A stretch of DNA of 27,722 nt from a candidate division FCPU426 bacterium (GTDB lineage: Bacteria; Oederibacteriota; JAAXVQ01; JAUVAV01), in the NCBI GenBank assembly GCA_030637655.1, contig DAOWGI010000036.1, positions 1 to 27,722 on the forward strand. Reading direction: 5' to 3'. Numbering within the stretch: position 1 is the stretch's first letter; every line of letters starts with the position of its first letter. Made by a program: the position numbers and the translations under genes. Under the pieces are notes generated by a model. The model saw only the letters and a list, made by a program, of their open reading frames with translations. It had not been told where the DNA came from and ran no database searches. Positions 1,471 to 23,013 of the stretch are shown in pieces.

Positions 1471-1485
1471 TATATTCTCCATTTT

Positions 1486-1566: not shown

Positions 1567-1960
1567 TTTCAATATATCGATTATAAAGCATCTCCAGGGT
1601 TTCCTGAGGTTGTTCTGTTAAACCATAACCTTCGGGCGAGAATTGAAAAGAACTGTCATCAACCGGTAAAATCCGCGAAGCAAATTCCGTGACATGTTCC
1701 GGTAATTTTTCCAGTGGTAATTCAGAATTCAACCGTTGGCCTTCTTCTTCCAATTTGGCTTGTATATACTTCATCATCCGGCGATAATGGGCGCTGTCAA
1801 CAGTTAAAAACATATTCTTTAAACGCGCACATTTCGGTGAACAAATAGCGCTCAAATAGCGGACTTGGGGGGCATATAATACTACACCTATGTTAATAAA
1901 TTTCCCTGTTACAATATCATGAATATATCTGAGAATCGAAAAGCTATATGCGGTTTTCAT
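1520..1960 (-). pseudogene. DUF3037-domain protein, apparently truncated at the 3' end
   Basis: MKTAYSFSILRYIHDIVTGKFINIGVVL...LEMLYNRYI is a DUF3037 pattern, with a GGAGG RBS before ATG 1960. The frame runs into the higB operator/promoter after ...YIEKY. Confidence 0.7.
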
Positions 1961-2032
1961 ATTAAAATCCTCCGTATACTCCGGTAAAATGGGCGAAAAC
2001 AAACCAGCGCTATTAAGTTGACTAACCATTTG

Positions 2033-3058: not shown

Positions 3059-3121
3059 AGTTGCCTTTCCCAGCACATTCTTCCACATCGCTCATTGTTA
3101 TTTCGGGTTTCTTACATATCG

Positions 3122-3236
3122 TATATTCCCCGGCATTATCACCGTTTTGTGATTCGCAGGAAAATATACAAGGCTTTGTTCTGCCCGAGGGCATATCCCT
3201 CAGAAATGTAACCGCTTCTAAATAAGGTATGGTCAT
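3122..3236 (-). pseudogene. HipA-like kinase N-terminal fragment (DUF3037-associated type)
   Basis: MTIPYLEAVTFLRDMPSGRTKPCIFSCE...GEY with GGAGG RBS. Close paralogue of 6690-6804; similarity stops at ~3122. Confidence 0.6.
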
Positions 3237-3268
3237 CTAACCTCCGCAAGCACCGCTCCAGGTCAATT

Positions 3269-3293
3269 GAAACCAGTGGCTGGCACCTGATTC
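3269..3293 (+). repeat. 25-bp island motif copy 1
   Basis: GAAACCAGTGGCTGGCACCTGATTC. Confidence 0.9.
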
Positions 3294-3396
3294 CGCAACC
3301 ACCGTTCGCCAGACCGATTGTACCCGTACTGTCGGCAAATAATCTAATATTTCTCTAATATTAAATCCTTTAATTCAACCAATTCTTGCTCCAATA

Positions 3397-3419
3397 GAAA
3401 CCAGCCTGGCACCTGATTC
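3397..3419 (+). repeat. 25-bp island motif copy 2 (2-nt shorter)
   Basis: GAAACCAG--CCTGGCACCTGATTC. Confidence 0.85.
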
Positions 3420-3447
3420 CCTTTGATAAAAATCTTGTATTTACTCA

Positions 3448-4263
3448 TTACCTCGTATTCCCCTTGTATTGTGGAATAACGACCAACTTATCTAAACGCC
3501 GGTGTATCAATGAAATTAGTGCAAAACTATCCAGGGCATCTTGCTCGTCCATTTGCCAATTCAGTTTGGCTTCATGAGCCAGAGGGTTACGAATAAAACC
3601 ATAAACTCCTTTCAATAGGTTGGCAAACCCTTTATGCTCTGCCTGTTCTGATTTTGTTCTTAACGTATTAATTGCAACCATTGGGTTATCGATTGCAAAG
3701 GCTTGATCAATGATTTTTACACCATCATCCGTAAGACCTGTTTTCTCTCGCAATCGACCCAGCACGCCTTTTGTCGCTTCAAAGACAGCATGAAAATAAT
3801 TTTCCGCCACAAGTTCAGGCAAACAATATTTAAACACTTCGGAATGTGTTCCTCTATTTTGTAATTTCAATTTCAAATTTGACGATTTTTGCAAAGCCTC
3901 TTGTACAGTTTTGGTTTGTGAAACAGCCGTTAGCTTACCTTCACCATTCAGTGATAACCCAGACAACGAAAGAATTTGATTAAGTTGTGCTTTGCGATTC
4001 TCAAATAACTCCATTTCCTGAAGATAACGGGCAGGTGACATTGCGTTTTCCAAAAAGACACCAATTTTATTGCCACATTTATCCGCAACTTGTTGGTCTG
4101 AGAACGCCTGAAAAAGTCTTCGCCATTTTGTCAAAGGCCCAGGGTCAGCAATTTGACACTGGGCAAGCAACCTTCCTATTTCACCTCCTGTAAATCCTCC
4201 CCCTGTATCACCAAGAATTTTGCATACTGCTTCCAATATTTCCGGGGAAAAGCTAGGTATCAT
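3448..4263 (-). CDS. TIGR02391-family protein (AbiJ-like N-terminus, HEPN-like C-terminus)
   Basis: ENYFHAVFEATK, EHKGFANLLKG..RNPLAHE (RxxxxH), DALD..ALISLIHRRLD. Confidence 0.85.
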   Translation of the reverse strand: MIPSFSPEILEAVCKILGDTGGGFTGGEIGRLLAQCQIADPGPLTKWRRLFQAFSDQQVADKCGNKIGVFLENAMSPARYLQEMELFENRKAQLNQILSLSGLSLNGEGKLTAVSQTKTVQEALQKSSNLKLKLQNRGTHSEVFKYCLPELVAENYFHAVFEATKGVLGRLREKTGLTDDGVKIIDQAFAIDNPMVAINTLRTKSEQAEHKGFANLLKGVYGFIRNPLAHEAKLNWQMDEQDALDSFALISLIHRRLDKLVVIPQYKGNTR

Positions 4264-4335
4264 TGTGGCCCTCCATCTACAAACGCTTTACATAATATAG
4301 CCCAGCATTCCAAATTATTCTTTACGATAATATCG

Positions 4336-4360
4336 AGAACCAGTACCTGGCACCTGATTC
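4336..4360 (+). repeat. 25-bp island motif copy 3
   Basis: AGAACCAGTACCTGGCACCTGATTC. Confidence 0.85.
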
Positions 4361-4446
4361 CGTCTTCGGAATTCACATTACCCTTCTAAAATCGGCTTCA
4401 AGATTTCCGAACTTTTTTCAGAAAAGCTGTCATCTATTTGACAATC

Positions 4447-5469
4447 TCATTTTTCATCTTTTCTAACATCACTCTCAATCTGTTTCAGGTCATTCTCCAA
4501 TTCGTTTAAGCTGTTTTCATGGAATGTTTTATTTTGAACCTCTTTATATTTTTTTAACTCTAAATTTGATTTTTCTAAAGCCATTTGGCGGCTTATTTTT
4601 CCGGCATGTGTAAGCAAATCTCTACCATTTAACTTCAAAATGTTATCAAGCTTGCCAATCCAATCATTCATATACATTGGTGTGTGTTGTTGGGCCATAG
4701 TCTCGGCAAAGGCAAGGTATTGCTCTACCAATAATCCAAGGAGTTTTATTTCATTTTCGTTCAAATAGTTTTTAGCAATACTGACTTCGCTTTTTTGGAT
4801 TTTAATATTGTTTTTTTTGTCGTATGATTGCATTCCCAAAAGGGGTAAAGAAGCATCTACTCTGCGAAAAACCAGTTCTGCTGCGGTCTGCCTGCTTATA
4901 GCCCAAAGTAGTTTGTTTTGTACAATCTTAAAAAATTCAATAGTCATCTCATCTTTCGGATCATAATCAATACTGGTTATATATATATCTTTTATCTTCT
5001 GATAGAAAAACCGCTCAGAAAGGCGGATTTCACGGAGTCTTTCTTGTAATTCATTGAAATAGTTCATGGAATTGCCGGTTTTAAACCGTTCATCATTCAG
5101 GGCAAAACCTTTTATGATATAGTCTTTTAAACGCTGTGTTGCCCAGATACGGAATTGCGTAGCCACTTGTGATTTTATTCTATATCCGACCGAGATAATG
5201 GCATCCAGATTATAGAATTTCTGTTTACGGTTTACTGCTCGATCACCCTCTTTTTGAACTATTAAGAAATCCTTACAAGTTGCTTTTTCGTCCAATTCTC
5301 CCTCTTCATAGATATTTTTTAGGTGCATGGTGATATTTTGTGGTTTTACTTGAAAAAGTTCAGCCATCAGCTTTTGAGTAAGCCAAACAGTTTCATTTTC
5401 CAAACGAACATCTATTTTGATGTTACCGCCGGGGGATTTATAGATAATTATTTCGGAATTTTGTTCCAT
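4447..5469 (-). CDS. Virulence RhuM-family protein (copy 2)
   Basis: ETVWLTQKLMAELFQ, FYNLDAIISVGYRIKS, IRLSERFFYQKIKDIY, IAKNYL motifs. Confidence 0.9.
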   Translation of the reverse strand: MEQNSEIIIYKSPGGNIKIDVRLENETVWLTQKLMAELFQVKPQNITMHLKNIYEEGELDEKATCKDFLIVQKEGDRAVNRKQKFYNLDAIISVGYRIKSQVATQFRIWATQRLKDYIIKGFALNDERFKTGNSMNYFNELQERLREIRLSERFFYQKIKDIYITSIDYDPKDEMTIEFFKIVQNKLLWAISRQTAAELVFRRVDASLPLLGMQSYDKKNNIKIQKSEVSIAKNYLNENEIKLLGLLVEQYLAFAETMAQQHTPMYMNDWIGKLDNILKLNGRDLLTHAGKISRQMALEKSNLELKKYKEVQNKTFHENSLNELENDLKQIESDVRKDEK

Positions 5470-5472
5470 AAT

Positions 5473-5577
5473 TTAACTTTCCAATTCTTTTTGGGTGGCA
5501 CTTAAGGTATCAAGCGCCTGTTTTAATTCAGCCGTAGATTCTTTAAATTCAATTTTTGATGATTCCTTCACTTTCAT
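5473..5577 (-). pseudogene. AlbA_2/Schlafen-like domain N-terminal fragment
   Basis: GGAG RBS, then MKVKESSKIEFKESTAELKQALDTLSA (ES..IEFKES...LSA pattern), ending before the expected FAN motif. Confidence 0.6.
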
Positions 5578-5620
5578 AAGCTCCGCTCAATTCGTTTTTT
5601 TAGCTTTCATTCATTGTTTA

Positions 5621-5651
5621 TATATTCCCCGGCACCATCACCGTTTTGTGA
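5621..5651 (-). pseudogene. 31-bp sliver of the HipA-like kinase gene
   Basis: TATATTCCCCGGCACCATCACCGTTTTGTGA matches 3122-3152 at 29/31 positions. Confidence 0.7.
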
Positions 5652-5674
5652 ACCCAATGGCCGGCACAGGCTTT
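5650..5674 (+). repeat. 25-bp island motif copy 4 (degenerate)
   Basis: GAACCCAATGGCCGGCACAGGCTTT. Confidence 0.7.
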
Positions 5675-5691
5675 CTATTAAAATCCTGCTT

Positions 5692-6068
5692 TTAACCAGA
5701 CACTTCCCAGTGCCCCCCTTTTCGAGCTCCTACCCGTTTAAGCCGCCCTGATTGACGGAGTGCTTTAATCTGCTTTTCGACAGCTCTTTCGGTTATTTTT
5801 AATATTTCCGATATTTCCGAAATCGTTGTAGCGATGATATTTTAAATAGTGATAATATTTTTTCAGATGTTTTTCCCGAACTTTTCACTCCTTCGGTATC
5901 TTTAAATCTATTCAGAAACGCCGGGTGAAGAGGAAGCTCAACCGTTAGAAAAGTCCTTTCTTCATCTGTATGAAATACCGGACGTGACGAGCCATTAACT
6001 TTGCATTCACGTATTATCTTTGGAATACCTGTTCCGCGTCCTTCGGTCATTTCCAGTTCTTTAAGAAA
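5692..6068 (-). pseudogene. C-terminal fragment of a RecG-C/HATPase_c_4 + winged-HTH regulator, frameshifted
   Basis: FLKELEMTEGRGTGIPKI..., then after a frameshift near 5830-5840, TTISEISEILKITERAVEKQIKALRQSGRLKRVGARKGGHWEVSG*. The 5' part is missing at motif copy 5. Confidence 0.75.
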
Positions 6069-6089
6069 CCCGTGGCCGGCACCTGATTC
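6065..6089 (+). repeat. 25-bp island motif copy 5
   Basis: GAAACCCGTGGCCGGCACCTGATTC. Confidence 0.9.
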
Positions 6090-6560
6090 GCTCTATAGCC
6101 AACTGATATTAGTAACAGTTCAGTGAACTGCGGTTAAACAAAGGTTGTCATACCCGCATGTAGTAAGCGGGTATCCAGTGACTTTTAAGTCCTTTAAAAT
6201 CAAAACCTCTGGTTCCCCGATTAAAGCATTCGGGGATGACAAACGATAAAAATCACTTCACTGAACTGTTACTGATATTATGACATCAAGGTTGTAATAT
6301 TTGATTTGCTTGGTTTGAGTTTTGCCTTTTATTGCACCATGCCTGGTGGTATGTCGGAAATGCCGACTTACCTCTTTTTCGTTCAGTTCGCCCTCTTTAA
6401 AGATGTTACTAATATGTTCGGTTATGGTTGTTCGCCCTTTTCCGAACAATTCCGCTATCTGCTCCTGCGTAAGCCAAACTGTCTCACCTTGCAAACGGGT
6501 TTGTATGCGGGTTTCATTGTCCGCTGTTTGATAGATTATTATTTCAGAATTTTGTTCCAT
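6090..6560 (-). pseudogene. RhuM-family protein (copy 3), MITE-interrupted and truncated
   Basis: MEQNSEIIIYQ...ETVWLTQ...YYNLDVIISV. The coding sequence resumes as ISVGYR at ~6092-6109 on the far side of the MITE, then meets motif copy 5. Confidence 0.85.
6112..6272. mobile_element. 161-bp MITE with 16-bp perfect terminal inverted repeats and 8-bp target duplication
   Basis: GTAACAGTTCAGTGAA (6112-6127) / TTCACTGAACTGTTAC (6257-6272), flanked by TGATATTA at 6104-6111 and 6273-6280. Contains a double-hairpin TTGTCA...TGACAA repeat. Confidence 0.85.
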
Positions 6561-6582
6561 ATTCAACTCTCCAAAATCGGCT

Positions 6583-6804
6583 TTAATATTTCGGGGATGG
6601 TATATCAATAAAATCAGCTAATAAAGAAGCAATAATTTCCGCTGAAAGACTTTTTACACCACTATCCATCCCGGCTTTCAATTCAACCACATATTCCCCG
6701 GCATCATCCCCGTTTTGCGATTCGCAAGAAAATACCCAAGGCCTTGTTCTGCCGGAGGGCAGGTCTCTCTGAAATAAAACCGCTTCTAAATAAGGTATGG
6801 TCAT
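6583..6804 (-). pseudogene. HipA-like kinase N-terminal fragment (longest copy, ~70 aa)
   Basis: MTIPYLEAVLFQRDLPSGRTRPWVFSCE...EYVVELK...LSAEIIASLLADFIDIPSP is a HipA-like N-lobe pattern, far shorter than a full kinase. Confidence 0.65.
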
Positions 6805-6849
6805 CTAACCTCCGTAAACAGCACTCGCCAGATCGATTGTATCAGGTCC

Positions 6850-8472
6850 CTACTTCTCTGATTTAATTTTTTGTAAAGAAACTTTATAGCCATAAGTTTC
6901 CAATTTTTGCTTTGCATTTTTCAAAGCAACTTTACTGAAAAATGGTATTTCCAAGTCATTTTCTACCGAACTTATTACAGCAAAAACCACTTCATAATCA
7001 GAAGCTTTCGGTTTATTTTCAATATCAAATATCCTATGTGCTTTTGATAGTTTTGCGCTTACTTTTTTTCTGAAATCTTCATCTCTTATAAAGAGTTCGC
7101 CAGACACGATCCCCTGGTTGAACAAATGACTTAAAACAGATGAACCGCCATAATGTTTTACGTGTATCATTTTTTTGTTTTTTGCAAACAGATCACAAAA
7201 TTCAATTTTACTATAACCGCCTCCATGGCTGATGTTTTTTCTATCCATACAACAAAATTGCTTGTCTTTTTGAGCAATCTTTATATTATAATCATTTTCA
7301 TTTCCATGCTGATAAGATGGCAAATCAATAGATATTGCTTGATTTCTAAGTGCTTGATATTCTTTATCCACTGATTTAGTAAAACTTTTTTCCACTTCAT
7401 ACCATTTCCCATTACTCAGCAAATATGTTTTTTCTTTGGTGCGGTCGTTTATTTCACAATACATACAATTGTATGCAGACCATTGGTGTTTAAGGCTGTC
7501 GTTTTGAGAATCAAAACAATATATTTTTTTCTTTTTCAATATTTCTATAGATAATTTATTTTTATCATCTTCAGATGCATCAGACAATGAATTAATAAAA
7601 GCGGATAAATTTATGTCATCATATTGTGTTTTAGGTCGCGCGCTATTTTTATATGAAAATCCTGAAACCTCTTCCCATTTCACAAGTTCTGGCACAGCCA
7701 TCCACGTTTTACCTTCTTGGTTGTTCTTTATATTTTCAATTAATTGCCCATCTAAAGTTTCGATTAGTTTTGGATCTTTTATGTCAGCAATCTGATCGAT
7801 CCAACCAAAATCCTTTTTATAATCTGTTTTTAAATATGTTTGGTAACATGTTTCTAAAAAATCCTTTATATTTGTCAAATCAACTTTGACTGAAACGCTC
7901 AAAGCGTCTTTACCTGTTATATTTTTTCCAAAAGTTTCATCTATAGTTTTTCCGGTAATTGATTGGACTAAATCTTGCTCAATATCAATTCCAAAATCCG
8001 CAGCTACACCTCCGCGGCTTAATTGTTCACTGGTATCTTTAGGAACAGAAGACATATTTTTTTTATCAATTCTGCGAAGACTGTCAGCATCAACAATATT
8101 GAGTGCTGTTTTTAAGCCAAAGCGTTCTTCCCATACTCCATGATTAAGAAGCGTCCAGCCATACCCAAAAGGAATTGCAAAAATTCTTCCTTGCTGTTTC
8201 ACTAATAAAACAGCCTTTGAGGTTGCGCTAAAAAGTTTTGATTTTGGTACATTTTCATATTTCTTATTATTGAAACTATCGTTAAAAAAATCTTCGATCC
8301 ATGCCGGTTCAAAATATTGTGAATCACCATAATATAACGTACCGATAGTGTTGGTTTTGTATTTGATATCTTCTTCTGTGAGCTCAGTATATTTCCCAAG
8401 AATATCCTCAGGCTTTGTGTACGATTCTTTAATAAGGTAGATGGTTAATTTGTTTGTTGGAATTTTGGCCAT
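6850..8472 (-). CDS. TIGR04141-family sporadically distributed protein (DUF6119)
   Basis: LTIYLIK, FAIPFGYG, FGLKTALN, LSNGKWYEV, IEFCDLF, HVKHYGGSSVLSHLFNQG, IPFFSKVAL motifs; 540 aa. Confidence 0.85.
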   Translation of the reverse strand: MAKIPTNKLTIYLIKESYTKPEDILGKYTELTEEDIKYKTNTIGTLYYGDSQYFEPAWIEDFFNDSFNNKKYENVPKSKLFSATSKAVLLVKQQGRIFAIPFGYGWTLLNHGVWEERFGLKTALNIVDADSLRRIDKKNMSSVPKDTSEQLSRGGVAADFGIDIEQDLVQSITGKTIDETFGKNITGKDALSVSVKVDLTNIKDFLETCYQTYLKTDYKKDFGWIDQIADIKDPKLIETLDGQLIENIKNNQEGKTWMAVPELVKWEEVSGFSYKNSARPKTQYDDINLSAFINSLSDASEDDKNKLSIEILKKKKIYCFDSQNDSLKHQWSAYNCMYCEINDRTKEKTYLLSNGKWYEVEKSFTKSVDKEYQALRNQAISIDLPSYQHGNENDYNIKIAQKDKQFCCMDRKNISHGGGYSKIEFCDLFAKNKKMIHVKHYGGSSVLSHLFNQGIVSGELFIRDEDFRKKVSAKLSKAHRIFDIENKPKASDYEVVFAVISSVENDLEIPFFSKVALKNAKQKLETYGYKVSLQKIKSEK

Positions 8473-8525
8473 GTTAACCCGCTCCTCAATAAATTTAAAA
8501 AGGAAAGATTTAATCCTTAGTTTCG

Positions 8526-9236
8526 TTATTCATCTTCATTATTGTAGGCCTCGACATATTGCTTCTTTATCTGACCAATCAACTTTTTCTTCCCGTGGAC
8601 GGCCAAAGAATTAAAATTAAATTCCAGGCACATTTTCATGTCTTGCTGTGAAAAATAATTTTGCCGGAGCAACACTTCCTGAAAGTGTTCAAAGTTTTCT
8701 TCTTCCTCACTCAATACTCTGGCAAAAATAGCAAACAAGACCTCCTTCATGTTGTTTTGAATCTGAGCAACACAATCTAATATTTGAGTGATCTTCTCAT
8801 CGAGCTGTTCCTGCGACTCAAAGAATATATTGCCGTTTGAATGAGCCACATCATTGCGCTGATCGATTATCTTATGCCATTGTCCAATTTGACCATTGTC
8901 AAAACCTATCAACTTGAAGAACCTCAATATGCTTCGCTCATTTAATTCACTCAAACTGAACGGCGTTCCAGAGTTTAAAAGCTTATTTTCAATATCTTTT
9001 CCAAATCCAATCAATGCTTTTTGAAAACAATCCGGCCTAACTGATTTTATTTTCCAGATAGAAAAATACACAAACATCATAAACGACATATGATATGCAA
9101 GAAATGAAAATTGATACTTTTTATTCTCATAGTTGCATACAAACGCATCCCAAAGAAACGGCAAATACTCCTGTTCTTTTTCAGTACAATAATAGCTGGG
9201 CAAATAGTCTAAAATAGCTTGAGCGTCCTCAATCAC
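8526..9236 (-). CDS. Hypothetical protein with HEPN-like RxxxxH motif
   Basis: 236-aa ORF that looks helical by eye, containing IDQRNDVAHSNG. Start overlaps the M-S gene stop (ATGA). Confidence 0.6.
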   Translation of the reverse strand: MIEDAQAILDYLPSYYCTEKEQEYLPFLWDAFVCNYENKKYQFSFLAYHMSFMMFVYFSIWKIKSVRPDCFQKALIGFGKDIENKLLNSGTPFSLSELNERSILRFFKLIGFDNGQIGQWHKIIDQRNDVAHSNGNIFFESQEQLDEKITQILDCVAQIQNNMKEVLFAIFARVLSEEEENFEHFQEVLLRQNYFSQQDMKMCLEFNFNSLAVHGKKKLIGQIKKQYVEAYNNEDE

Positions 9237-11830
9237 TTCTCACCCCAGACTTTGGCAATACGGTCTTTGATTTTTTGTTCGTACATTTTAATGAGTTTTT
9301 TGTTGGCATCTACTATTTGTTGTTCCTGCTGAATTGTATATATAACCTTATCTTGTACTTCCGTATCCGGACGAGGAATTAACCATTTTGAAACAAAATC
9401 TTTAGGAACTCTCTGCAATCCACCAGTTCCTGTCATTTTTGCTTTACCAGATCCCCTAAAACTCCTTGGTACTATGTTGTAATATATCCATTCAGGACGA
9501 ACCTTGTTACCAGCTCTTAAAACATAAAATTCACTTGAACCAAAACCTATACCATTGAGCAAATTACGCGCAAGCCCAGCTTTTCCATTTTCGAAACATG
9601 GTGTTACTTTCGCCAACAACACATCTTCATTTTGGAAATATGTATACCCCTCAAAGACATCCCCTAACCGTTTTTTTTGTTTAGACTCAAAATACATTTG
9701 ATTTTCATTGATATCTGCCATAGGGACAAAAGAAACTACTAGTTCTTGATTCTTATCCGAAATTCGTGACTTCTTTGGATTTAATTCACAAACTTTGCCC
9801 AACTCCACCATCTCCCACTCAGGATCAATATCAATGCGCGGCTTGTAGTTTTCAACAACTTGCCGCGCGCCGTTGATGATTTTTTGATAGCCATCTAATT
9901 CTGCAACGATTTCTTGTTGGATGGGTAATGGGGGCAAGGGCAATTGAATGTTTTTCAAGACTCTAACTGATGCAACATTTTTTATTGCTGCACCATATGT
10001 TAAGTTATTGAGTGAGCATTGAAACTTATCACTCTCCATCATATATTTTAAGTAGTTTTTGTCGATTTTATTTGACGGCGACAATTTTAACAGCGCTTGG
10101 TTAATTATACCAGGTTTAAGCCATGTAGGTGCAATGGCCACTTTCCCCATCGTTCCAGAGCAACTCATTATTAAGTCGCCAGGGTTTAGATGAAATTGTG
10201 TCATTTCCTGGTATTTTTTTTCATCTATATAATATCTAACTGCATTAAAGTCGTTTTGGATCGCATGACTTTGTTCATATATACAATACCCGGACGACAC
10301 AAAAATGTCTTTTTTTAAACTTCCGCCAAAAGGTCCACGCTTAAATTCTGCAACATCTCCCAATTTTTTAAAAATGTAATTACTTGATCGAAACTCATCT
10401 CTTGTTTTGTACCTCTCTCCGCTCAGATTATATTCCCCACCCTCTGCAATCTTACTTTTTTCAACCAAATGTATATTCTGCCATCCATCGCTGTTAAATA
10501 CTTTTCCTGCAAGCAGTGCTTCTTTATATTCCATAATCGCTTGATACGCCTCTGGCAGATCATTTTTCTTGATGGGCCGGCGTTGGGCCCCGAGGTCAAA
10601 GCCGTCGTTTTCGATTTTGACGAATAATAGTTTATCCGTCTTTTTGGCTAATTTTTTATCGAACCAGAGAATAGACGTTTTTACGCCTGAATAGGGATTA
10701 AACAGTCCGGCAGGCAGGGATATCACCCCGACTAAAAAGTGATCCTCCACCAGCATTTTGCGAAGCTGTTTATAGGCGTTGGATGTTTGAAAAATAATGC
10801 CTTCCGGCACAATAATCGCGGCGCGGCCCTGAGGGTTCAAATGTTCAGCCATGTAATCCACAAACAGCACTTCCGAGCGGTTGGCTTGCACGGAAAAACG
10901 GTTATGGGGTTTGATCCCGCCTTTGGGCGACATAAAGGGCGGATTGGCCAGGATGACATCCGCTTTTTCATCCCATTTTTCGTCACGGGAGAGCGTATCA
11001 TATTCCGCAATGCTTGGATTACTGAATCCATGTAAATACATATTCACCAGCGAGAGGCGCACCATATCAGGAGAAATGTCATATCCAAAAATGTTGTCAA
11101 CCAGGCGCTTTCTGTCATCTGAAGTCAGTTTCTCGCCTTTATACCCTTTTCCGTTAATGGTAAGTTCCGAAAGTTTGATGTCCTGTAATTCAAAGGGCTT
11201 GGGATCATGCTTAGGGTCATAATTTTTTGAATTTCTTTTAATGATGTGTTTATACGCGGAGATTAAAAACCCGGCCGTGCCGCAGGCAGGGTCCAGAATC
11301 CGCTCGTTTTTTTTAGGCTCCAATATCTCAACCATAAAATCAATGATGTTTCTTGGAGTCCTGAATTGTCCGGCATCTCCCTGACTGCCTAATACGGAAA
11401 GCAGGTATTCAAAAGCATCGCCTAATCTTTCGGAATGATCATACTCAAAGGTATTAATCTCTTTAAGAAAATCTTTTAATGTTTCCGGGTCACGATAGGG
11501 CAAATAAGCATTTTTGAATATATCCCTGAACAGTTGCGGAACATTGTTGTTATAATTCATGTTCTGAAGGGCTTCGCCGTATAAATTAACAACTTCCTGT
11601 CCGCTGTTTCTCGGATCAAAAATATTTCGCCAGGCGTATTTTTTATATTCTTTTGTAAAAAACTTGGCTTTGCCGCGGGGCAGGCTTTCCGCCTGCCTGT
11701 CCATATCATCCATGAATTTATAAATAAGCGCGATGGTTATCTGTTCAACCTGCGACTTGGGATCAGGTATTTTGCCGACCAGAATATCGCGGGCTGAATC
11801 TATCCGTCTTTTGGTCTCGCTATCTAACAT
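9233..11830 (-). CDS. Type I-like N6-adenine methyltransferase fused to a two-TRD specificity subunit (HsdM-HsdS fusion)
   Basis: GQFRTP, DPACGTAGFL and NPPF motifs in the N-terminal ~480 aa. The C-terminal part has two TRDs (KLGDVA...PLPPLPIQQEIV; LGKVC...GTGGLQRVP) of HsdS type. Confidence 0.9.
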   Translation of the reverse strand: MLDSETKRRIDSARDILVGKIPDPKSQVEQITIALIYKFMDDMDRQAESLPRGKAKFFTKEYKKYAWRNIFDPRNSGQEVVNLYGEALQNMNYNNNVPQLFRDIFKNAYLPYRDPETLKDFLKEINTFEYDHSERLGDAFEYLLSVLGSQGDAGQFRTPRNIIDFMVEILEPKKNERILDPACGTAGFLISAYKHIIKRNSKNYDPKHDPKPFELQDIKLSELTINGKGYKGEKLTSDDRKRLVDNIFGYDISPDMVRLSLVNMYLHGFSNPSIAEYDTLSRDEKWDEKADVILANPPFMSPKGGIKPHNRFSVQANRSEVLFVDYMAEHLNPQGRAAIIVPEGIIFQTSNAYKQLRKMLVEDHFLVGVISLPAGLFNPYSGVKTSILWFDKKLAKKTDKLLFVKIENDGFDLGAQRRPIKKNDLPEAYQAIMEYKEALLAGKVFNSDGWQNIHLVEKSKIAEGGEYNLSGERYKTRDEFRSSNYIFKKLGDVAEFKRGPFGGSLKKDIFVSSGYCIYEQSHAIQNDFNAVRYYIDEKKYQEMTQFHLNPGDLIMSCSGTMGKVAIAPTWLKPGIINQALLKLSPSNKIDKNYLKYMMESDKFQCSLNNLTYGAAIKNVASVRVLKNIQLPLPPLPIQQEIVAELDGYQKIINGARQVVENYKPRIDIDPEWEMVELGKVCELNPKKSRISDKNQELVVSFVPMADINENQMYFESKQKKRLGDVFEGYTYFQNEDVLLAKVTPCFENGKAGLARNLLNGIGFGSSEFYVLRAGNKVRPEWIYYNIVPRSFRGSGKAKMTGTGGLQRVPKDFVSKWLIPRPDTEVQDKVIYTIQQEQQIVDANKKLIKMYEQKIKDRIAKVWGEK

Positions 11831-11895
11831 AGTTTCTCCTCTTTAAAGTTCATGAGTTTAGCCCCGTTACAAGTGGTTATGTCACTATCCGAAAT

Positions 11896-11993
11896 TTGTC
11901 ATCCCGGCAATATTTTAGCCGGGATCCAGTGACTTTTAATTCTTTTAAAATCAAAACCTCTGGATCCCCGATAAGATCATTCGAGGATGACAA
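11896..11993. repeat. Double-hairpin REP-like element (TTGTCATCCCG...GGATGACAA)
   Basis: Closely similar to 6145-6242, including the spacer CCAGTGACTTTTAA...AAAATCAAAACCTCTGG. Confidence 0.8.
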
Positions 11994-12036
11994 GCAAAAA
12001 AAACGGCTTTCCTCAACAGGAACTAGTTACCTTGCA

Positions 12037-14562
12037 TTACATAAATGCATTAAGCGGCACGTAATCCTTGACATATTCCATGACCGGAACCATCAACTCG
12101 CCCAATTCCTGTAAATCCCGCATATTAAACCTTGGGTTTGTCGCAAGAGATGAAAATTCCCCTGTTTCCATGATCTGTCTTATTTCATTATCCGAAATAT
12201 AGGCTTTCATAAACTGCCCGATAATATGCGCGAATTCAGGCTGCGGATGGTAAATGGAAATAAATTTCTGCACTTCTTCTTCCAGCAGTTCGTCTTTGGT
12301 CTTGAACTTTTTGATAGTACCGAATATCTTCTCGAGAATTTCCCGCAAGCTTACCCGGCGGTCTAATTTGATGGACTTGCGCAGTTTTTCAAGATCAAAA
12401 TATTCTTCAGGCTTGTTAAATACTTCCTGCTTGATATAGGCTTCCGCTTCCTCAAATTTGCCCTCATTGATTTTCGCCTTGATATGCTCATCCGCGCTGA
12501 TTGTTTCCTCAAATTTTTCAAACAGCTTGCGGTCAATCCTCATGCCTTCCAGACCAATGACCTTTTCATGAAGACCCGTAATCGGATCGGGATTGACATT
12601 TTCATATTCAATTGATTCTTTTGGCAAAATAACAGGGTCAGGTCCGGTTACTTTGGCATTGTTTTTCGGCAATTCAAGGACTTCATCATAAGGATACTTG
12701 TCATCAAAATATTCACAATTGGCAAAAAAATCAAAGAGTTTGAATTTTTCTTTTTCCTGCTTATAGGCTTCTGTGCCGCCCATTCCATCCGCTTCTTTGT
12801 GCACAAACGCGTATTTGCGCGTGCCACGGCCTTTTATCTGAATGAAATCAGTCGGCGAAAATATCGGCCGCAGCATACACAGATTAAGAATGTCCCGGCA
12901 GTCATAGCCGGTAGTCATCATGCCCACAGTTACACAAACACGGGTTTTTGAGGTGCTGTACCCGTCTACAAACTTTGAATTTCCATTTAAGCGATTATTG
13001 GCAAAGTTAATAGTCATTTGCTGCGCGCCGGAAACATTGGATGTTATTTGAACAGCAAAATCCGAATTATATTTGCCGGGATATTTTTGATGCGCGAGCT
13101 CGTTTAAGATTTGTGTGACTTTTGAGGCGTGATTTTGACTGACACAAAAACAAATGGTTTTACCGATCTCCTTGGTTAACGGATCACGCAAAGCATTATC
13201 AAAAAATGTTTTACAGAATGTAAGGTTGGTCTCATCAGAGAATAATTTTTTCTCAAAATCTTTTTGATAAAATATTTTTTCCTCTTCCCCGCCTTCCTCA
13301 TTGGCCATGACAACAGCATAGCCTTCATCTGATAATAATTGGGTTGTGATTTCCGTTCTGGCGTCGATTGTGATCGGATTGATTAAATAGCCCTCGCGAA
13401 CCCCGGCCAGCAAAGAATAACGAAAGGTCGGATCACTGTCCAGGCAGCCAAAGGTGGTATAAGTGTCCAACAATTGCCTTTGTTCCAAAGCCCGCGGATC
13501 ACGATTGGCCAGATGGCTTATATCCACATTTTTAAGATAATTTTTAGGGGTTGCGGTTAGTCCCAGTTTATACCCGATAAAATATTCAAAAACCGCACGG
13601 CTATTGCCTCCGATTGATCTATGCGCTTCATCAGAGATTACCAGATCAAAATCCGTTGGGCTGAACAAGTCTTTGTACTTATTATTAAACAGCAATGACT
13701 GTACGGTTGAAACAACGATTTCCGCCCTGATCCAATCGTCTTTATTCTCTTTATAAATCACACATTTAAAATCATTTTTAAGATAATCTTTAAAATTTCT
13801 CCTGGCCTGATCTTCCAGTTCCAAACGGTCCACCAGAAATAATACGCGCTTGGCATTACTTGTGCGCAAAAACAGTTTACTCACTGCTGCTGATACCAGG
13901 GTTTTGCCGGTGCCGGTTGCCATTTCAAATAGAAACCGGTCCTTTCCTTGCTTCACAGCATCTTGAATAGAACGAACCGCTTGCTTCTGATACTCGCGTA
14001 AAAAACGCAATCCGCTATTTTCGATAAACTTTTCTCTCTGCGATTCATCCTGCCATTGCGGGTCTTTGCTGTAATTCTGGTTCTGAGTTATGGCAATATA
14101 ATCATGGCCGACTTCTTCCCGAATAAGCGCATCCCGGTCTGGCGTAAATGCCTGTTTGTGCGAAATAGAATCTTGTGAGGGAAAGGTCGTGATAATATGG
14201 GGGTTGTCTGTTTCAACATCCCAAAAATAATGAATATTTCCGTTGGATAAGATCACAAAGCGCACGTTTATAGATTGCGCGTATTGTCTGGCTTGTTCCT
14301 TGCCGTCCAGCGGGCTTTTGTCTTCCTTCTTTGCTTCTAAAACAACAAAAGGGAAACCGTTTTTGTCTAAAAGGAGAAAATCAATAAAGCCATTTTTGGT
14401 TTTTTCAAAATCTTCCCCCAGCTCATTTAATGCCCGCTCGCTCAATTTGGCATTAACTTCCAGAGCAATATTGGCCCGGCCTTGATTGGAATCAAAAAAG
14501 CGCCATCCGGTATCTTCCAGAAGTTTATTGATTTTGATTCTTGCTTTGGCTTCTTTTGGCAT
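12037..14562 (-). CDS. hsdR: Type I restriction endonuclease subunit R (EcoEI-like DEAH helicase/nuclease)
   Basis: FIDFLL..VLEAKK..QARQY nuclease motif, REYQ, MATGTGKT, FLVDR, DEAH, GLTATP, TTGYD, QIKGRGTR. Start at MPKEAKAR with an AGGAG RBS. Confidence 0.9.
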   Translation of the reverse strand: MPKEAKARIKINKLLEDTGWRFFDSNQGRANIALEVNAKLSERALNELGEDFEKTKNGFIDFLLLDKNGFPFVVLEAKKEDKSPLDGKEQARQYAQSINVRFVILSNGNIHYFWDVETDNPHIITTFPSQDSISHKQAFTPDRDALIREEVGHDYIAITQNQNYSKDPQWQDESQREKFIENSGLRFLREYQKQAVRSIQDAVKQGKDRFLFEMATGTGKTLVSAAVSKLFLRTSNAKRVLFLVDRLELEDQARRNFKDYLKNDFKCVIYKENKDDWIRAEIVVSTVQSLLFNNKYKDLFSPTDFDLVISDEAHRSIGGNSRAVFEYFIGYKLGLTATPKNYLKNVDISHLANRDPRALEQRQLLDTYTTFGCLDSDPTFRYSLLAGVREGYLINPITIDARTEITTQLLSDEGYAVVMANEEGGEEEKIFYQKDFEKKLFSDETNLTFCKTFFDNALRDPLTKEIGKTICFCVSQNHASKVTQILNELAHQKYPGKYNSDFAVQITSNVSGAQQMTINFANNRLNGNSKFVDGYSTSKTRVCVTVGMMTTGYDCRDILNLCMLRPIFSPTDFIQIKGRGTRKYAFVHKEADGMGGTEAYKQEKEKFKLFDFFANCEYFDDKYPYDEVLELPKNNAKVTGPDPVILPKESIEYENVNPDPITGLHEKVIGLEGMRIDRKLFEKFEETISADEHIKAKINEGKFEEAEAYIKQEVFNKPEEYFDLEKLRKSIKLDRRVSLREILEKIFGTIKKFKTKDELLEEEVQKFISIYHPQPEFAHIIGQFMKAYISDNEIRQIMETGEFSSLATNPRFNMRDLQELGELMVPVMEYVKDYVPLNAFM

Positions 14563-14710
14563 ATTGCTCCTTTTTAACCGGGAGACGTTTTTTCGTTTCA
14601 TATTATGGCACAATTATATGCCCTTCTCACTTTTCAACCAATCACAATTGGTTCAAATCCAACCACAACTCACACTTCTTCCTTTTTTAAACAGGTCGTC
14701 TATTTTTCTC

Positions 14711-14735
14711 GAAACCAGTGGCCGGCACCAATTTC
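14711..14735 (+). repeat. 25-bp island motif copy 6
   Basis: GAAACCAGTGGCCGGCACCAATTTC. Confidence 0.85.
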
Positions 14736-14758
14736 ACCAACATACGAAGCATACTTGT

Positions 14759-15346
14759 TTAATTGATCAGCTCACGGCAAAATGCTTCTAATGGGCCATA
14801 ATTTCCCCGGTCCGCCTCCTGCATGGACTTGATATATGTTTCCCGGATTTTAGTTTTCTCAATCAATTCCTTATCCGGCCAGTTGGGCAATTTTTCACCC
14901 CGACCGAAAAGGAATATATCCGAAATCAGCCTGGCATGTCTTCCGTTTCCATTGAAAAAGGGGTGAGTTTTTACCAGTCTATGGTGTATATATACACTTC
15001 TATCAAACACACTTAACGTATTGTTTTTTTCCCAAAATTCAATATCCTTGGCCAAATTATATATCTCTATAGGTATTTGAATCGGTTCCACACCAAGATT
15101 TAAGGAGACCGTCCGAAAAGTCCCCGCCCAGGTCCAGGTTTGTTCAAACATTTCTTTATGCACTTTTTTTATAAACTCAACTGTCATTAAATACTTCCTG
15201 CGCTTTAATAGGTATTTGCGTGTGGCCTGGGCAATGTTATATGCTTCATATTCATTAAGTTGGGTTTGGGTTTCTATGTGTTTCGGGATTAAATGAGAGA
15301 CATCGCCAATAGGAGTCGCATCAGGAACAGCTTCAAATCCAGGCAT
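14759..15346 (-). CDS. Mobile mystery protein B (Fic domain)
   Basis: HPFFNGNGRHARL Fic motif, N-terminal PDATPI...LNEYEAYNI, WTWAGTFR. Confidence 0.9.
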   Translation of the reverse strand: MPGFEAVPDATPIGDVSHLIPKHIETQTQLNEYEAYNIAQATRKYLLKRRKYLMTVEFIKKVHKEMFEQTWTWAGTFRTVSLNLGVEPIQIPIEIYNLAKDIEFWEKNNTLSVFDRSVYIHHRLVKTHPFFNGNGRHARLISDIFLFGRGEKLPNWPDKELIEKTKIRETYIKSMQEADRGNYGPLEAFCRELIN

Positions 15347-15793
15347 TTATTCTTCCCAGAGCGAAGCATTGGGATTTTTCGTAAGTTCACGTGTTAGTTC
15401 ATCTAATTCCTTATGATATGTTTTATCGTCAGGCGCCTGATTTTCAAGTGCCATATTAGCGTATGTACGCTTTAGTATCCGCTCAGCAGTTTTTCCGGCC
15501 TGGCGTTGTATCATTTCTTCAAGCGTAACCGGCAGCGAAACACTCATTAAAAGATAGCCATTAAAAATGCTAATATATCGTTCGAGTGTTTGTAAGTTGG
15601 CTGAAGACAGATTTTTCTCAAGTTTGGTCACTGCCTGCCTGGTTATACCAAGCCTCTTGGCCACTTGTTTCTGAGTCATGCCCAGAGATTTTCTAATATC
15701 TTTTAGACGCCGGCCAAACTTAAATACTGGCATAGGATTGCCTGATTTTGTAAGTTCAGATAATTGTCTTATTTTTAGAGCACTTGTTGTCAT
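15347..15793 (-). CDS. Mobile mystery protein A (XRE HTH)
   Basis: IRKSLGMTQKQVAKRLGIT HTH, MALENQ motif and C-terminal LWEE. GGAGGAGG RBS before ATG 15793; abuts the Fic gene. Confidence 0.85.
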   Translation of the reverse strand: MTTSALKIRQLSELTKSGNPMPVFKFGRRLKDIRKSLGMTQKQVAKRLGITRQAVTKLEKNLSSANLQTLERYISIFNGYLLMSVSLPVTLEEMIQRQAGKTAERILKRTYANMALENQAPDDKTYHKELDELTRELTKNPNASLWEE

Positions 15794-15803
15794 ATTATCC
15801 TCC

Positions 15804-15870
15804 TCCACAAAAGCAACTTTGGAGTTTCTATTTTATTATAATTAAGCTACTTTAAAGTTGCTTTTGTGGA
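15804..15870. promoter_or_regulatory. Inverted-repeat operator/promoter upstream of mobile mystery A
   Basis: Perfect 17-bp IR TCCACAAAAGCAACTTT / AAAGTTGCTTTTGTGGA around a minus-strand TATAAT (15835-15840). Confidence 0.65.
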
Positions 15871-15933
15871 ATTATAGCAATTATAACAATAACAGACAAC
15901 TCTAAATGAATTCCGGGGTGTCTTTTTTTAAAC

Positions 15934-15958
15934 GAACCCAGTGGCTGGCACCTGATTC
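15934..15958 (+). repeat. 25-bp island motif copy 7
   Basis: GAACCCAGTGGCTGGCACCTGATTC. Confidence 0.9.
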
Positions 15959-15964
15959 ATCTGA

Positions 15965-16114
15965 TTCCCCCAGCTCATTTAATGCCCGGCCGCTTAATTT
16001 GGCATTAACTTCCAGAGCAATATTAGCCCGGCCTTGATCGGAATCAAAAAAACGCCATCCGGCTTCTTTCAGGAGTTTGTTGATTTTGATTCTTGCTTTG
16101 GCTTCTTTTGGCAT
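15965..16114 (-). pseudogene. Truncated second copy of hsdR (first 50 codons)
   Basis: MPKEAKARIKINKLLKEAGWRFFDSDQGRANIALEVNAKLSGRALNELGE aligns to 14413-14562. The upstream ~80 bp is also shared. Confidence 0.9.
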
Positions 16115-16219
16115 TTTGTTCCTTTTTAATCGGGACACTTGTGGCACAATTATATGTCCTAATCACTTTTCAACCAATCACAATTATTTCAAATATTGAT
16201 AAAATAAGAAGGGCCAGGC

Positions 16220-16906
16220 TTAAAAATCTATAGAACTTTCCTTAAAACTAAAATATTCATTCCCGCCGATAATAATATGATCCAGTAACGTAATTTCCAC
16301 TGTCTTAAGCGCTATCTTAATAGCTTTGGTGATATCCATATCTTCCCTGGAAGGCTCCAAAGACCGGGCAGGATGATTGTGGCTAATCACCACACCTGCG
16401 GCGTGGTGATACAATGCTTGTTCAACAATTGTTCTTGGAAAGACAATTATCTGATTAACGGTCCCGTTTTTTATTGCCTCCATGGCAATTAGCTGATTAC
16501 GATTGTCCAGAAATAACATTTTAAACTCTTCATCAGCCAAACCCTTAAGCGAAACCTTTAAGTAATCATAAATAAGTTGCGGTGATGAGAGCAAATCCCT
16601 GCTATGAAGATTGTTTTCCATATAAAAACCGGAAATATCCTTCAACAATTTCAAAAACAAAGCTGAATGCTTTGATATCCCACGAACGCCTTGCAACTCC
16701 TTGTAATCAGCATCAAGCACGCCATTTAAATTTTTAAACCGGCTAAGTAATTCTTTAGCTGTTTTTTTTGTGTCTTTACGGGCAATAGCATAGGACAAGG
16801 CCAGTTCTAAAACCTCATAATCCAGCCATCCCTTTAATCCGGCTTTTTCATATTTTTCTTTCATTCTGCTCCGGTGTCCGATATAACCGGTGACTGTCTC
16901 TTTCAT
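16220..16906 (-). CDS. radC: RadC-family JAB-domain protein
   Basis: GHRSRMKEK, YEVLELAL, EEFKMLFLD, GTVN, HNHP..SLEPSRED, LLDHIIIG motifs. Confidence 0.92.
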   Translation of the reverse strand: MKETVTGYIGHRSRMKEKYEKAGLKGWLDYEVLELALSYAIARKDTKKTAKELLSRFKNLNGVLDADYKELQGVRGISKHSALFLKLLKDISGFYMENNLHSRDLLSSPQLIYDYLKVSLKGLADEEFKMLFLDNRNQLIAMEAIKNGTVNQIIVFPRTIVEQALYHHAAGVVISHNHPARSLEPSREDMDITKAIKIALKTVEITLLDHIIIGGNEYFSFKESSIDF

Positions 16907-16933
16907 AAAAATCCATCCATCCTTATAAACCAG

Positions 16934-16958
16934 GAAACCGGTGGCTGGCGCCTAATCC
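16934..16958 (+). repeat. 25-bp island motif copy 8 (outermost)
   Basis: GAAACCGGTGGCTGGCGCCTAATCC. Confidence 0.8.
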
Positions 16959-17057
16959 TATAATCACCAGGGACATCAAACCTGACCACAGGAATGCGCA
17001 GGCCAGGTAATATAATATTTTGGTTATTTCCATAATTGAATGTTTGATTTTCGATAC

Positions 17058-17082
17058 GGGCGAATACAAGATTCGCCCCTAC
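17058..17082 (-). repeat. GTAG-type REP-like hairpin, possibly also a terminator
   Basis: Minus strand GTAGGGGCGAATCTTGTATTCGCCC; stem GGGCGAAT/ATTCGCCC just downstream of the radical SAM gene. Confidence 0.65.
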
Positions 17083-17109
17083 AGCGTCGATTTTTTATTT
17101 TAAATGTAT

Positions 17110-21094: not shown

Positions 21095-21102
21095 ACATAT
21101 TA

Positions 21103-21759: not shown

Positions 21760-23013
21760 ATGAAAAAAAACGCTACCATAATTATCATAGGCGCAGGCCC
21801 TGCCGGAACTTCTGCCGCGTACCATTTAACCCAGGCCGGCATAGATGTTTTGCTATTAGATAAAGAGTCTTTTCCGCGCGACAAGATTTGCGGTGATTGT
21901 CTTTCACCTTCAAGTATGCAGGAATTGGAAAAAATCGGACTAAGAGATGAAGTTACAGCCAAAAGCAATGAAATAGATGGATGTATTTTATATGCTCCCA
22001 ACAAATCCTATTTTACGGTAGATAATTGTAAAGCCAGGCCTCATTTAATGATGCGGGAAACACTGGACAATATGTTGCTTAAAAAAGCTTGTGAAAAAGG
22101 AGCGGATTTTTTGGAAAATACAAGAATAATCTGTTTAGAAAAAAAGCCTGACAGAATAATTCTTAAAGATGACTCGGGAGAAAGCTACTCCTGCAAATTA
22201 GCTATAATTGCCACTGGTTCCAATTCTTCGCTGCCTATCCGTTTGGGATTGTTAAAATTGCCATCTGCAGACGCTATAGCCTGCCGTGCCTATGTCGCAG
22301 ATATAAATTTTTCCTCAGACAAAATTCTACTTAGTTACGCGAAAGACCTATTGCCTGGCTATGGTTGGGTGTTTCCCCTGGGTAAGGGCAAAGCCAACGT
22401 AGGCATAGGTTATTTTTTTAGCAAGGGAAACAACCCTAATCCCAGAAAGATTTGGAAAACATTCGCAAAATTTCTAGAAAAAGAGGGAATATTTGGCAAA
22501 AATACAAAACCTGTTTCAGAGGTTAAAACTGCTTTGATGCGCATGGGATTGAGAGGTAACCGGCTTTTTGCTGAACGTATTCTTTTGGCCGGGGATTCTG
22601 CCAGCGCGATTAATCCCCTGAGCGGAGAGGGTATATACTATGCTTTACAAACCGGACGATTTGCTGCCTGGGCCGCGCAGCAAGCCATCGAGGCGGGTGA
22701 TTTTACAGCTCAACAATTGTTGGCTTACCAAAAAATGTTGAAAGAAAACTACAAAAAGAAATTTAAGAATTATCGAAAAATTAATAGGTTACTAAGCAAT
22801 CAGGCAATTATTAATCAGATGGTCAAGATTGCCGGAGAAAAACGTGAATTAGCTGAAACAATTTTTGTAACCCTGCTTGGTGAAAGCAACCCTATGAAGT
22901 CATTGAAACTTTTTGCCAAGCATATCATCAAAAGCTGGTTTGGGATTTTTAAGATTGTAAGAAAAAAAGTTTCGTCTCGGGATGGCGGGATAAATAAAAA
23001 AAAGGTGGGGTGA
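21760..23013 (+). CDS. Geranylgeranyl reductase family FAD-dependent oxidoreductase
   Basis: IIGAGPAG, FPRDKICGD, GYGWVFP, ANVGIG, LAGDSASAINPLSGEGIYYAL. Confidence 0.9.
   Translation: MKKNATIIIIGAGPAGTSAAYHLTQAGIDVLLLDKESFPRDKICGDCLSPSSMQELEKIGLRDEVTAKSNEIDGCILYAPNKSYFTVDNCKARPHLMMRETLDNMLLKKACEKGADFLENTRIICLEKKPDRIILKDDSGESYSCKLAIIATGSNSSLPIRLGLLKLPSADAIACRAYVADINFSSDKILLSYAKDLLPGYGWVFPLGKGKANVGIGYFFSKGNNPNPRKIWKTFAKFLEKEGIFGKNTKPVSEVKTALMRMGLRGNRLFAERILLAGDSASAINPLSGEGIYYALQTGRFAAWAAQQAIEAGDFTAQQLLAYQKMLKENYKKKFKNYRKINRLLSNQAIINQMVKIAGEKRELAETIFVTLLGESNPMKSLKLFAKHIIKSWFGIFKIVRKKVSSRDGGINKKKVG

Follow-up and report, generated by a model that had tools for sequence, protein, structure and literature searches.

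The contig DAOWGI010000036.1 of a candidate division FCPU426 bacterium (assembly GCA_030637655.1), analysed here over positions 1 to 27,722 and hereafter called the window, carries eight direct copies of a 25-base palindromic motif. The question raised by this locus is how the same short sequence can lie both between apparently intact gene modules and exactly at the points where other genes have been cut. A preliminary description had placed the motif at gene-truncation junctions rather than in clean intergenic space, and our data were only partly in agreement with this view: breakpoints mapped by homology, 0 to 9 nt from the motif, were found at 5 of its 16 flanks, but 8 of the 16 were clean. 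The copies are confined to bases 1 to ~17040, where guanine-cytosine (GC) content ranges from 0.31 to 0.42 and genes are found exclusively on the minus strand; housekeeping genes with a GC content of 0.40-0.51 follow from position 17110 onward. This low-GC part is a defence and toxin-antitoxin (TA) island which adjoins the core genes at ~17040. As a tentative interpretation, held with somewhat less than even confidence, we propose that a site-specific recombinase encoded outside the window uses the motif as an att-like site for attachment or crossover, that the motif delimits serially added modules and that the truncations resulted from site-anchored deletions or aberrant events.

The motif, GAAACCAGTGGCTGGCACCTGATTC, was found on the plus strand throughout, within positions 3269-16958. 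In gene orientation it reads GAATCAGGTG-CCRGC-CACTGGTTTC and forms an imperfect palindrome, arms of ~10 bp (GAATCAGGTG and CACTGGTTTC) flanking a centre of 5-7 bp. The copies are located at 3269..3293 (copy 1, identical to the consensus), 3397..3419 (copy 2, which lacks 2 nt in the arm toward lower coordinates), 4336..4360 (copy 3), 5650..5674 (copy 4, with a degenerate higher-coordinate arm differing at 4 of 10 positions), 6065..6089 (copy 5, with truncated genes at both flanks), 14711..14735 (copy 6, with two clean flanks), 15934..15958 (copy 7) and 16934..16958 (copy 8, the closest to the core genes). A search with the core pattern returned seven matches without mismatch, on the plus strand only and between 3273 and 16951, where 0.8 were expected by chance; the chance expectation for the full motif was 0. 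In a weight-matrix scan, six copies reached 35-44 bits while the maximum over 100 shuffles was 18.6. Copy 4 scored 17.2 bits, and copy 2 scored 11.5 when aligned without gaps, a low value attributable to its 2-nt deletion. All eight copies are placed on one strand (P=0.008), and the core DNA of the window, 10.6 kb, has none. As a repeat located at module seams, the motif is genuine and has statistical support. A candidate ninth site, to which no strand was assigned, was noted at 6839..6863, where it overlaps the stop codon of the DUF6119 gene, directly precedes the leader of a kinase unit and occupies the place equivalent to copy 1 in the paralogous kinase unit. With a score of -0.7 bits, within the top 0.08% of 25-mers, it is possibly a decayed motif, on weak evidence.

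Beyond the 25 bp, nothing was conserved between the flanks of the copies, and direct reading of the sequence revealed no flanking duplication at any of the eight. The hairpin that the bare motif can form is marginal (-0.9 to -2.6 kcal/mol), no larger hairpin was conserved when the copies were folded with 10- or 40-nt flanks, and no Rfam match was obtained at any copy. The two arms diverge independently of each other. In copies 4, 6 and 8 the gene-upstream arm has diverged and the other arm is close to consensus, and in copies 2 and 3 the situation is reversed.

The five mapped breakpoints concern an hsdR duplicate, a rhuM fragment, a regulator fragment, a kinase piece and the stub of a kinase leader. 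The hsdR duplicate (15965..16194, minus strand) consists of the promoter region and the first ~58 codons and is 85% identical to 14413-14658. On the gene-upstream side of copy 7, as had been noted before, the motif cuts this duplicate: hsdR homology stops at GGGGGAA, which is followed by TCAGAT and then by the motif, and an extra 9-nt partial arm is found between copy 7 and the duplicate (15959..15967; ATCTGATTC on the plus strand, GAATCAGAT on the minus strand). Around the annotated start, a 16-nt indel further distinguishes the two hsdR 5' regions. With this difference and an identity of only 85%, the truncated copy is a relic of another allele rather than the product of a recent duplication in place.

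Copy 5 has a gene fragment on either side, and each of the two cuts reported there was confirmed. On the gene-upstream side, an N-terminal fragment of rhuM (family PDC-S05; 6090..6608, minus strand) ends with ISVGYR, and only GCG (3 nt) separates it from the motif; a further insertion that splits this fragment and resembles a miniature inverted-repeat transposable element (MITE) was set aside here. On the gene-downstream side lies the 3' part of a regulator of the AlbA_2/HATPase_c_4 type (5692..6064, minus strand), representing approximately the last 140 of ~500 residues. Regulator homology begins at the F of FLKELEM, 4 nt inside the motif, and the three intact homologues examined all display G-D/E-F/Y-LKEL at this position. 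The fragment matches positions 47-88 of the 89 positions of Pfam HATPase_c_4, and its start corresponds to residue 359 of a 501-residue homologue from a Planctomyces plasmid. It spans two overlapping frames, 5799..6092 and 5692..5841, the second of which matches HTH_11, so that besides its 5' truncation the regulator is apparently frameshifted near 5799-5841. No support was found for the small open reading frame (ORF) at 5473..5586 as the regulator N-terminus.

The last two breakpoints involve kinase genes related to HipA_2/PDC-M66A. A piece of such a gene, containing QNGDGAGEY, lies at 5607..5649 on the minus strand; the cut on its 5' side coincides exactly with copy 4. The homology of the piece (5621-5651) ends inside the first GA of the motif, as previously described. 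On the gene-upstream side of copy 1, the 103-nt filler which separates copies 2 and 1 (3294..3396, minus strand) contains a 29-nt stub of the 5' leader of a kinase unit, ending in GCGGA (P<0.0005).

At the eight clean flanks, the site is either preceded by a gene stop at a distance of 17-86 nt or followed by the start or promoter region of the next module. Stops precede the site by 17 nt for the regulator (copy 4), 23 nt for Fic (copy 6), 28 nt for TIGR02391 (copy 2) and 86 nt for the intact rhuM gene at 4447..5469 (copy 3). On the other side, the RadC ATG follows copy 8 at 27 nt, the ATG of a kinase sliver follows copy 1 at 32 nt on its low-coordinate side, XRE follows copy 7 at 125 nt, and hsdR, with its own promoter region, follows copy 6 at ~100 nt. 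Between copies 7 and 6, the XRE-Fic module (14736..15933, minus strand) is intact on both sides and possesses its own promoter-like site (15899..15871), the best of the region. A near-perfect palindrome of 67 bp (15804-15870) is located at the start of the XRE gene, just downstream of this promoter-like site, and is probably the operator of the antitoxin. This palindrome also gave the sole Rfam matches, which were spurious (miRNA).

The remaining three flanks could not be assigned. The first, at copy 3, contains the tail of an orphan ORF (VLDIIVK to GGPQ and stop; 4260..4335, minus strand) between the motif and the TIGR02391 start codon. Its existence and the 4-nt overlap (ATGA) of its stop with the TIGR02391 ATG were as first reported, but no credible homologue was obtained: a single, spurious match to a repetitive protein was found among 1.84 billion representatives, with no family match, and its status as a truncated gene is unproven. 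It was also considered as the partner gene of TIGR02391 and rejected, being unlike the gene upstream of a plasmid homologue and giving no PD-Lambda-3_A match. The second flank, at copy 8, corresponds to a hydrophobic ORF of 36 residues (16923..17033, minus strand), in which the motif forms codons 26-34, close to the end as the preliminary description had it. Two of the five examples cited there, those at copies 3 and 8, involve flanking ORFs for which coding homologues were lacking, an outcome that the description had itself named as refuting. The third flank, of ~62 nt next to copy 2, was compared with the 3' end of DUF6119-like genes, and the alignment failed a shuffle test (P=0.31).

Junction bases shared with the ends of the motif had been reported, and they were recovered at the mapped breakpoints: GAA at copy 7, GA at copies 4 and 1, and up to TTTC at copy 5, this last stretch being deduced from distant homologues. 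The shared bases (2-4 nt) always belong to the GAA/TTC at the ends of the palindrome. That three junctions should share at least 3, 2 and 2 bases is jointly unlikely by the simple 4^-k rule, a reasoning based on small numbers. At the positions homologous to the breakpoints, intact gene copies contained no motif-like pseudo-site, their best weight-matrix scores being -16 to -0.7 bits against 35-44 for the motif; the partner sequence is therefore short and near-random. The earlier proposal that one partner of each event is the motif and the other a very short, near-random match thus holds at the five mapped breakpoints. A derivation of the motif from the rhuM sequence following GYR was rejected, as local alignment did no better than with shuffled motifs (P=0.17-0.56), and a weak PADLOC alignment suggesting this likeness (E=0.033) was carried by ISVGYR.

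The association between breakpoints and motif was further evaluated against random placement. Six pairs of paralogous segments from a self-BLAST comparison, motif and MITE pairs being left out, provided 24 end-points. Three of these were within 10 nt of a motif, compared with 0.5 expected for random placement of eight sites (P=0.02). The mapped breakpoints themselves lie 0-9 nt from a target that covers ~2% of the island.

According to the reading that we favour, RadC, the XRE-Fic pair, the type I restriction-modification (RM) operon, the rhuM units and TIGR02391/PD-Lambda-3_B would have been inserted serially at the site, and such serial insertion would therefore leave one direct copy at every seam. 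The truncated flanks would be secondary, produced by deletions or by aberrant excision and re-insertion. Each secondary event would run from an outer edge of the site to an unrelated position, whose only identity to the terminal GAA/TTC amounts to 2-4 nt. This may reflect a recombinase acting on degenerate sites or, alternatively, a host microhomology-mediated deletion at a protein-bound site. Serial addition is the simplest account of the clean flanks. It fits the single orientation of the copies, their confinement to the island, the lack of similarity between flanks beyond the 25 bp and the exact meeting of unrelated modules at the site. Three of the four mismatches of copy 8 are located in its core-side arm, which fits as well. 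Arms that vary independently would look like hybrid sites generated by crossing-over between different partners, and the size and anatomy of the motif, two arms and a central region, would fit those of simple recombinase core sites. Recombinase action at the site, the arrival of modules one by one and the later date of the truncations are what we infer from this pattern. The mechanism is plausible but unproven: a single locus accommodates capture as well as deletion, and degenerate-site recombination as well as host microhomology-mediated deletion. If a recombinase does use this site, a defence island is seen here being both assembled and eroded at a simple, non-integron site. In that case the locus would represent a second, independent cassette-array solution for stocking anti-phage and TA genes, and the 25 bp, the defined edges and the microhomologies would provide a concrete substrate for the question of how islands gain and lose modules.

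Several observations weigh against serial addition at a recombinase site. Among 185,579 species genomes, the motif gave 48 single matches and no arrays; GC content was 50-72% at 46 of these loci and 47% and 50% at the other two, and the matches are due to chance only. In plasmids and phages, motif matches did not exceed chance level (at most 22 nt). In a collection of 5.8 billion protein clusters, a search with an ORF that spans the motif was without result for proteins of 24-79 residues and retrieved two word-sharing candidates, neither of which scored, for those of 80-2000 residues. A Pfam scan of the 24 larger ORFs of the window detected no integrase, recombinase or transposase family; the array extends into the left part of the window, and an integrase gene may lie beyond base 1. 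Mobility, the enzyme and the direction of events are deduced from one arrangement with neither polymorphism nor empty site. Copy 8 as the end of a target gene is weakened by the lack of homologues and family matches for the 36-residue ORF. Neighbouring copies share a central variant in four of seven adjacent pairs (P=0.064), which would fit serial addition, but the clustering lacks significance. At least five other junctions disrupt genes of the island and have no motif, namely the frameshift in the regulator, the MITE and the 3' ends of three kinase slivers, with rhuM following each sliver; general island decay therefore contributes. A more mechanistic difficulty comes from the breakpoints themselves. 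With tyrosine and serine recombinases, strand exchange takes place in the central region of the site, and an event at a secondary site would produce a hybrid in which one arm is foreign. The edge breakpoints are unlike that: they are found on either outer edge of a motif that is itself intact, and the copies at the three truncated gene-upstream flanks have perfect consensus arms.

Searches with larger parts of the island were performed as well. The XRE-Fic module had no match in plasmids, segment 3240-6100 matched rhuM genes only, and the motif string did not occur in the literature searched.

Among known systems, islands that grow by tandem accretion offer the closest parallel to serial addition, a logic that cassette arrays also follow. 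SCCmec composite islands are one example. A report on Dehalococcoides describes ssrA islands in tandem, bounded by a 20-bp direct repeat and in some cases without integration modules (PMC3146451). For cis-mobilizable elements (CIMEs), retention of attL and attR after loss of the integration genes has been described, together with a scheme of accretion involving ICESt1 and a CIME (PMC5704250). The islands of these two reports (PMC3146451, PMC5704250) share with the present one the presence of unrelated modules beside a core locus, a short direct repeat in single orientation at each seam, many modules without recombinase, and accessory, defence or TA cargo. In the present island, too, units are bounded by a directly repeated att-like sequence, all eight copies of which have the same orientation. 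However, the repeat in tandem accretion is a copy of the 3' end of the target gene (tmRNA, tRNA or rlmH) and at least some units carry an integrase, whereas the motif is a free-standing 25-bp palindrome with no target gene established, the window contains no integrase, and several seams cut genes. At the core-side border, copy 8 lies inside the ORF without homologue or family, and neither tRNA nor tmRNA was found within the window. The arrangement of att-bounded tandem modules is thus a known one; what is unfamiliar is the free-standing palindromic site with breakpoints anchored at its edges.

Integrons, and clusters of attC sites lacking an integron-integrase (CALINs), are also comparable in some respects. 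They have co-oriented cassettes, a site located tens of nt past the stop codon, and defence and TA cargo, and CALIN arrays have no integrase nearby, just as none is present in the window. According to one study, degenerate sites in the genome (attG, with a conserved GWT) can serve the integron integrase as partners of attC, and excision can be imprecise and alter the genome (bioRxiv 10.1101/2022.09.11.507474). In the island, four modules have the site 17-86 nt past their stop, yet modules are multigene with their own promoters and five flanks are truncated. Moreover, attC sites are imperfect inverted repeats of 55-140 bp with R''(RYYYAAC) and R'(GTTRRRY) boxes that fold as single strands, whereas the motif has 25 bp and a weak hairpin. 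A scan of positions 1-17100 for RYYYAAC...GTTRRRY box pairs returned six candidates, two of them paired, both intragenic; none was at a seam, and they were weaker than the best of 20 shuffles. An integron or CALIN was rejected on the basis of the absence of attC-type structures, the absence of IntI in the window, the multigene modules with own promoters, and the breakpoints on both edges of the site.

Two further site-specific systems can be considered. The pdif modules of Acinetobacter plasmids, bounded by XerC/D sites, are small, often carry TA or accessory genes, and have short palindromic core sites with no adjoining dedicated recombinase. Their sites have 28 bp (11-6-11) with an AT-rich centre and alternate in orientation, in contrast to the 25-bp, GC-rich-centred and uniformly direct sites of the island. 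In the shufflon of R64, the tyrosine recombinase Rci acts on partly conserved sfx sites, so that adjacent DNA is exchanged whatever it encodes. What a shufflon inverts, however, are segments belonging to a single gene family, while the island arrays unrelated modules in direct order, and no Rci-like gene was found in the window.

The preliminary description had gone further, to DNA capture or deletion irrespective of gene boundaries and differing from precise cassette excision. The five breakpoints do ignore gene boundaries, but this behaviour is not general, since the eight clean flanks look like precise module boundaries and the XRE-Fic module, bounded by copies 7 and 6, is complete at either end. 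Capture as the main mode, in which an enzyme joins the motif to near-random short matches and builds the array from fragments taken up without regard to boundaries, in a way that differs in kind from precise cassette exchange, is unlikely, although not negligibly so. The 2-4 nt microhomology of the five breakpoints and the absence of a pseudo-site in intact copies speak for it, as do the gene fragments on both sides of copy 5, the filler between copies 2 and 1 that ends in a leader stub, and the hsdR duplicate, which at 85% identity to the resident gene came from another allele. Deletion accounts equally well for the same junctions, however. Capture is also at odds with the clean half of the flanks and the precise ends of the XRE-Fic module, two of the fragments cited in its favour are without coding homologue, and at least five fragment junctions of the island are without motif.

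Another possible explanation dispenses with a recombinase. The motif could be a palindromic repeat bound by a protein, similar to an operator or to repetitive extragenic palindromic (REP) elements, at which stalled replication or nicking creates a hot spot for microhomology-mediated deletions ending at its edges. Deletion end-points are known to cluster at replication-arrest sites, and REP elements are found at duplication joints in Escherichia coli. The palindromic sequence, junctions that sit on either outer edge of an unbroken motif, and the identities of 2-4 nt are consistent with such a role. REP elements and the bacterial interspersed mosaic elements (BIMEs) built with them, which are associated with RAYT transposases, are likewise short palindromic extragenic repeats found at rearrangement joints. 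They form stable hairpins, however, and are dispersed genome-wide in both orientations, whereas the hairpin of the bare motif is very weak, its eight copies have one orientation and are restricted to the island, and the core DNA of the window has none. A protein-bound repeat also leaves the exact meeting of unrelated modules at the site unexplained, and we regard it as unlikely. If the motif were merely a repeat where deletions tend to end, the locus would be a case of ordinary island decay.

A bolder form of the recombinase hypothesis seems distinctly unlikely. The motif would then belong to an undescribed cassette platform, unrelated to IntI/attC and based on a 25-bp palindromic site, in a lineage outside the 185,579 genomes. 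It would assemble anti-phage islands module by module, with an enzyme that cuts at the outer edges, joins the site to almost any sequence and captures or deletes DNA regardless of gene boundaries.

Transposition was considered as well. The motif could consist of two abutting terminal inverted repeats, as a body-less miniature element or remnant, whose tips are cut by a transposase acting in trans, intramolecular transposition then deleting DNA from either end. In its favour, the unit is intact with breakpoints exactly at either tip, the organisation GAA...TTC is palindromic, and copy 7 has its extra partial arm. Nevertheless, this explanation is very unlikely: target-site duplications were absent from every copy and a transposase from the window, all copies have a single orientation, and solitary arms, those of the motif copies being left out, were at background, near the ~22 obtained with shuffles. 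Known MITEs are far larger than 25 bp. A remnant of a MITE or of an insertion sequence end was rejected on similar grounds, there being no flanking duplications, no transposase, no parent element and only a background level of solitary arms.

Finally, coincidence, with the motif as an ordinary intergenic signal such as a regulator's operator upstream of each operon in a generally decaying island, is highly improbable, for although four copies lie 27-125 nt upstream of operon starts and many island junctions have no motif, paralogue end-points are enriched at the motif, all five breakpoints fall within 0-9 nt of so small a target, and an operator does not predict that homology stops at the edge of the site. 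Other ordinary roles were examined and rejected. The consensus of sigma-54 promoters is TGGCAC-N5-TTGC; reading of the sequence showed that the -12 element is absent and that no genes lie downstream on that strand. A role as coding sequence is contradicted by the reading frame, which differs at copies 3, 5 and 8, and a known RNA family or a tRNA-derived att site by the lack of Rfam matches at the copies and of tRNA and tmRNA.

The genes of the island, all on the minus strand, comprise a HigB-like toxin with an XRE/M78 protein (PD-Lambda-2_B), DUF3037 (PDC-M66B), three rhuM genes or fragments (PDC-S05), the N-terminal sliver of a HipA_2/PDC-M66A kinase in three places, TIGR02391 (PD-Lambda-3_B), the regulator fragment, DUF6119/TIGR04141, a HEPN-like protein, a type I RM system made up of hsdR and a fused hsdM-S gene, the XRE-Fic pair and RadC. 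PD-Lambda-2_B, PDC-M66A/B, the three PDC-S05 members, PD-Lambda-3_B, type I RM and PDC-S04/SoFic-like are usual cargo of such islands, which is consistent with the recombinase reading. The hsdM-S fusion is a single ORF of 865 residues at 9233-11830, in which an N6_Mtase domain is followed by two Methylase_S regions.

In three units, a kinase N-terminal sliver is followed by rhuM on the minus strand (3236->2033, 5648->4447 and 6804->6258), as though rhuM had taken the place of most of the kinase gene. In the first of these units, DUF3037 (PDC-M66B), the usual partner of the kinase, is found directly after rhuM.

The MITE-like element which splits the rhuM fragment at copy 5 occupies 6104-6278 (175 bp); its terminal inverted repeats measure 25 nt, and the target duplication is TGATATTA (8 bp). 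Partial relatives of this element were found at 11895-12024, between hsdR and hsdM-S, and, in inverted orientation, at 20986-21111 in the core region.

The core genes past 17110 encode a radical-SAM enzyme, NrdR, a Wzy/TPR protein, a UDP-GlcNAc 2-epimerase, a glycosyltransferase (family 4, WecA/MraY type), a dCMP deaminase, serine hydroxymethyltransferase (SHMT) and RpiB. Two pieces of the UDP-GlcNAc 2-epimerase gene are repeated there (21100-21291 versus 23072-23227 and 23803-23846), with identities of 93% and 95%. These repeats sit upstream of a gene similar to FAD-dependent geranylgeranyl reductases (21760..23013), which looks like an insertion accompanied by partial duplication of the neighbouring epimerase gene.

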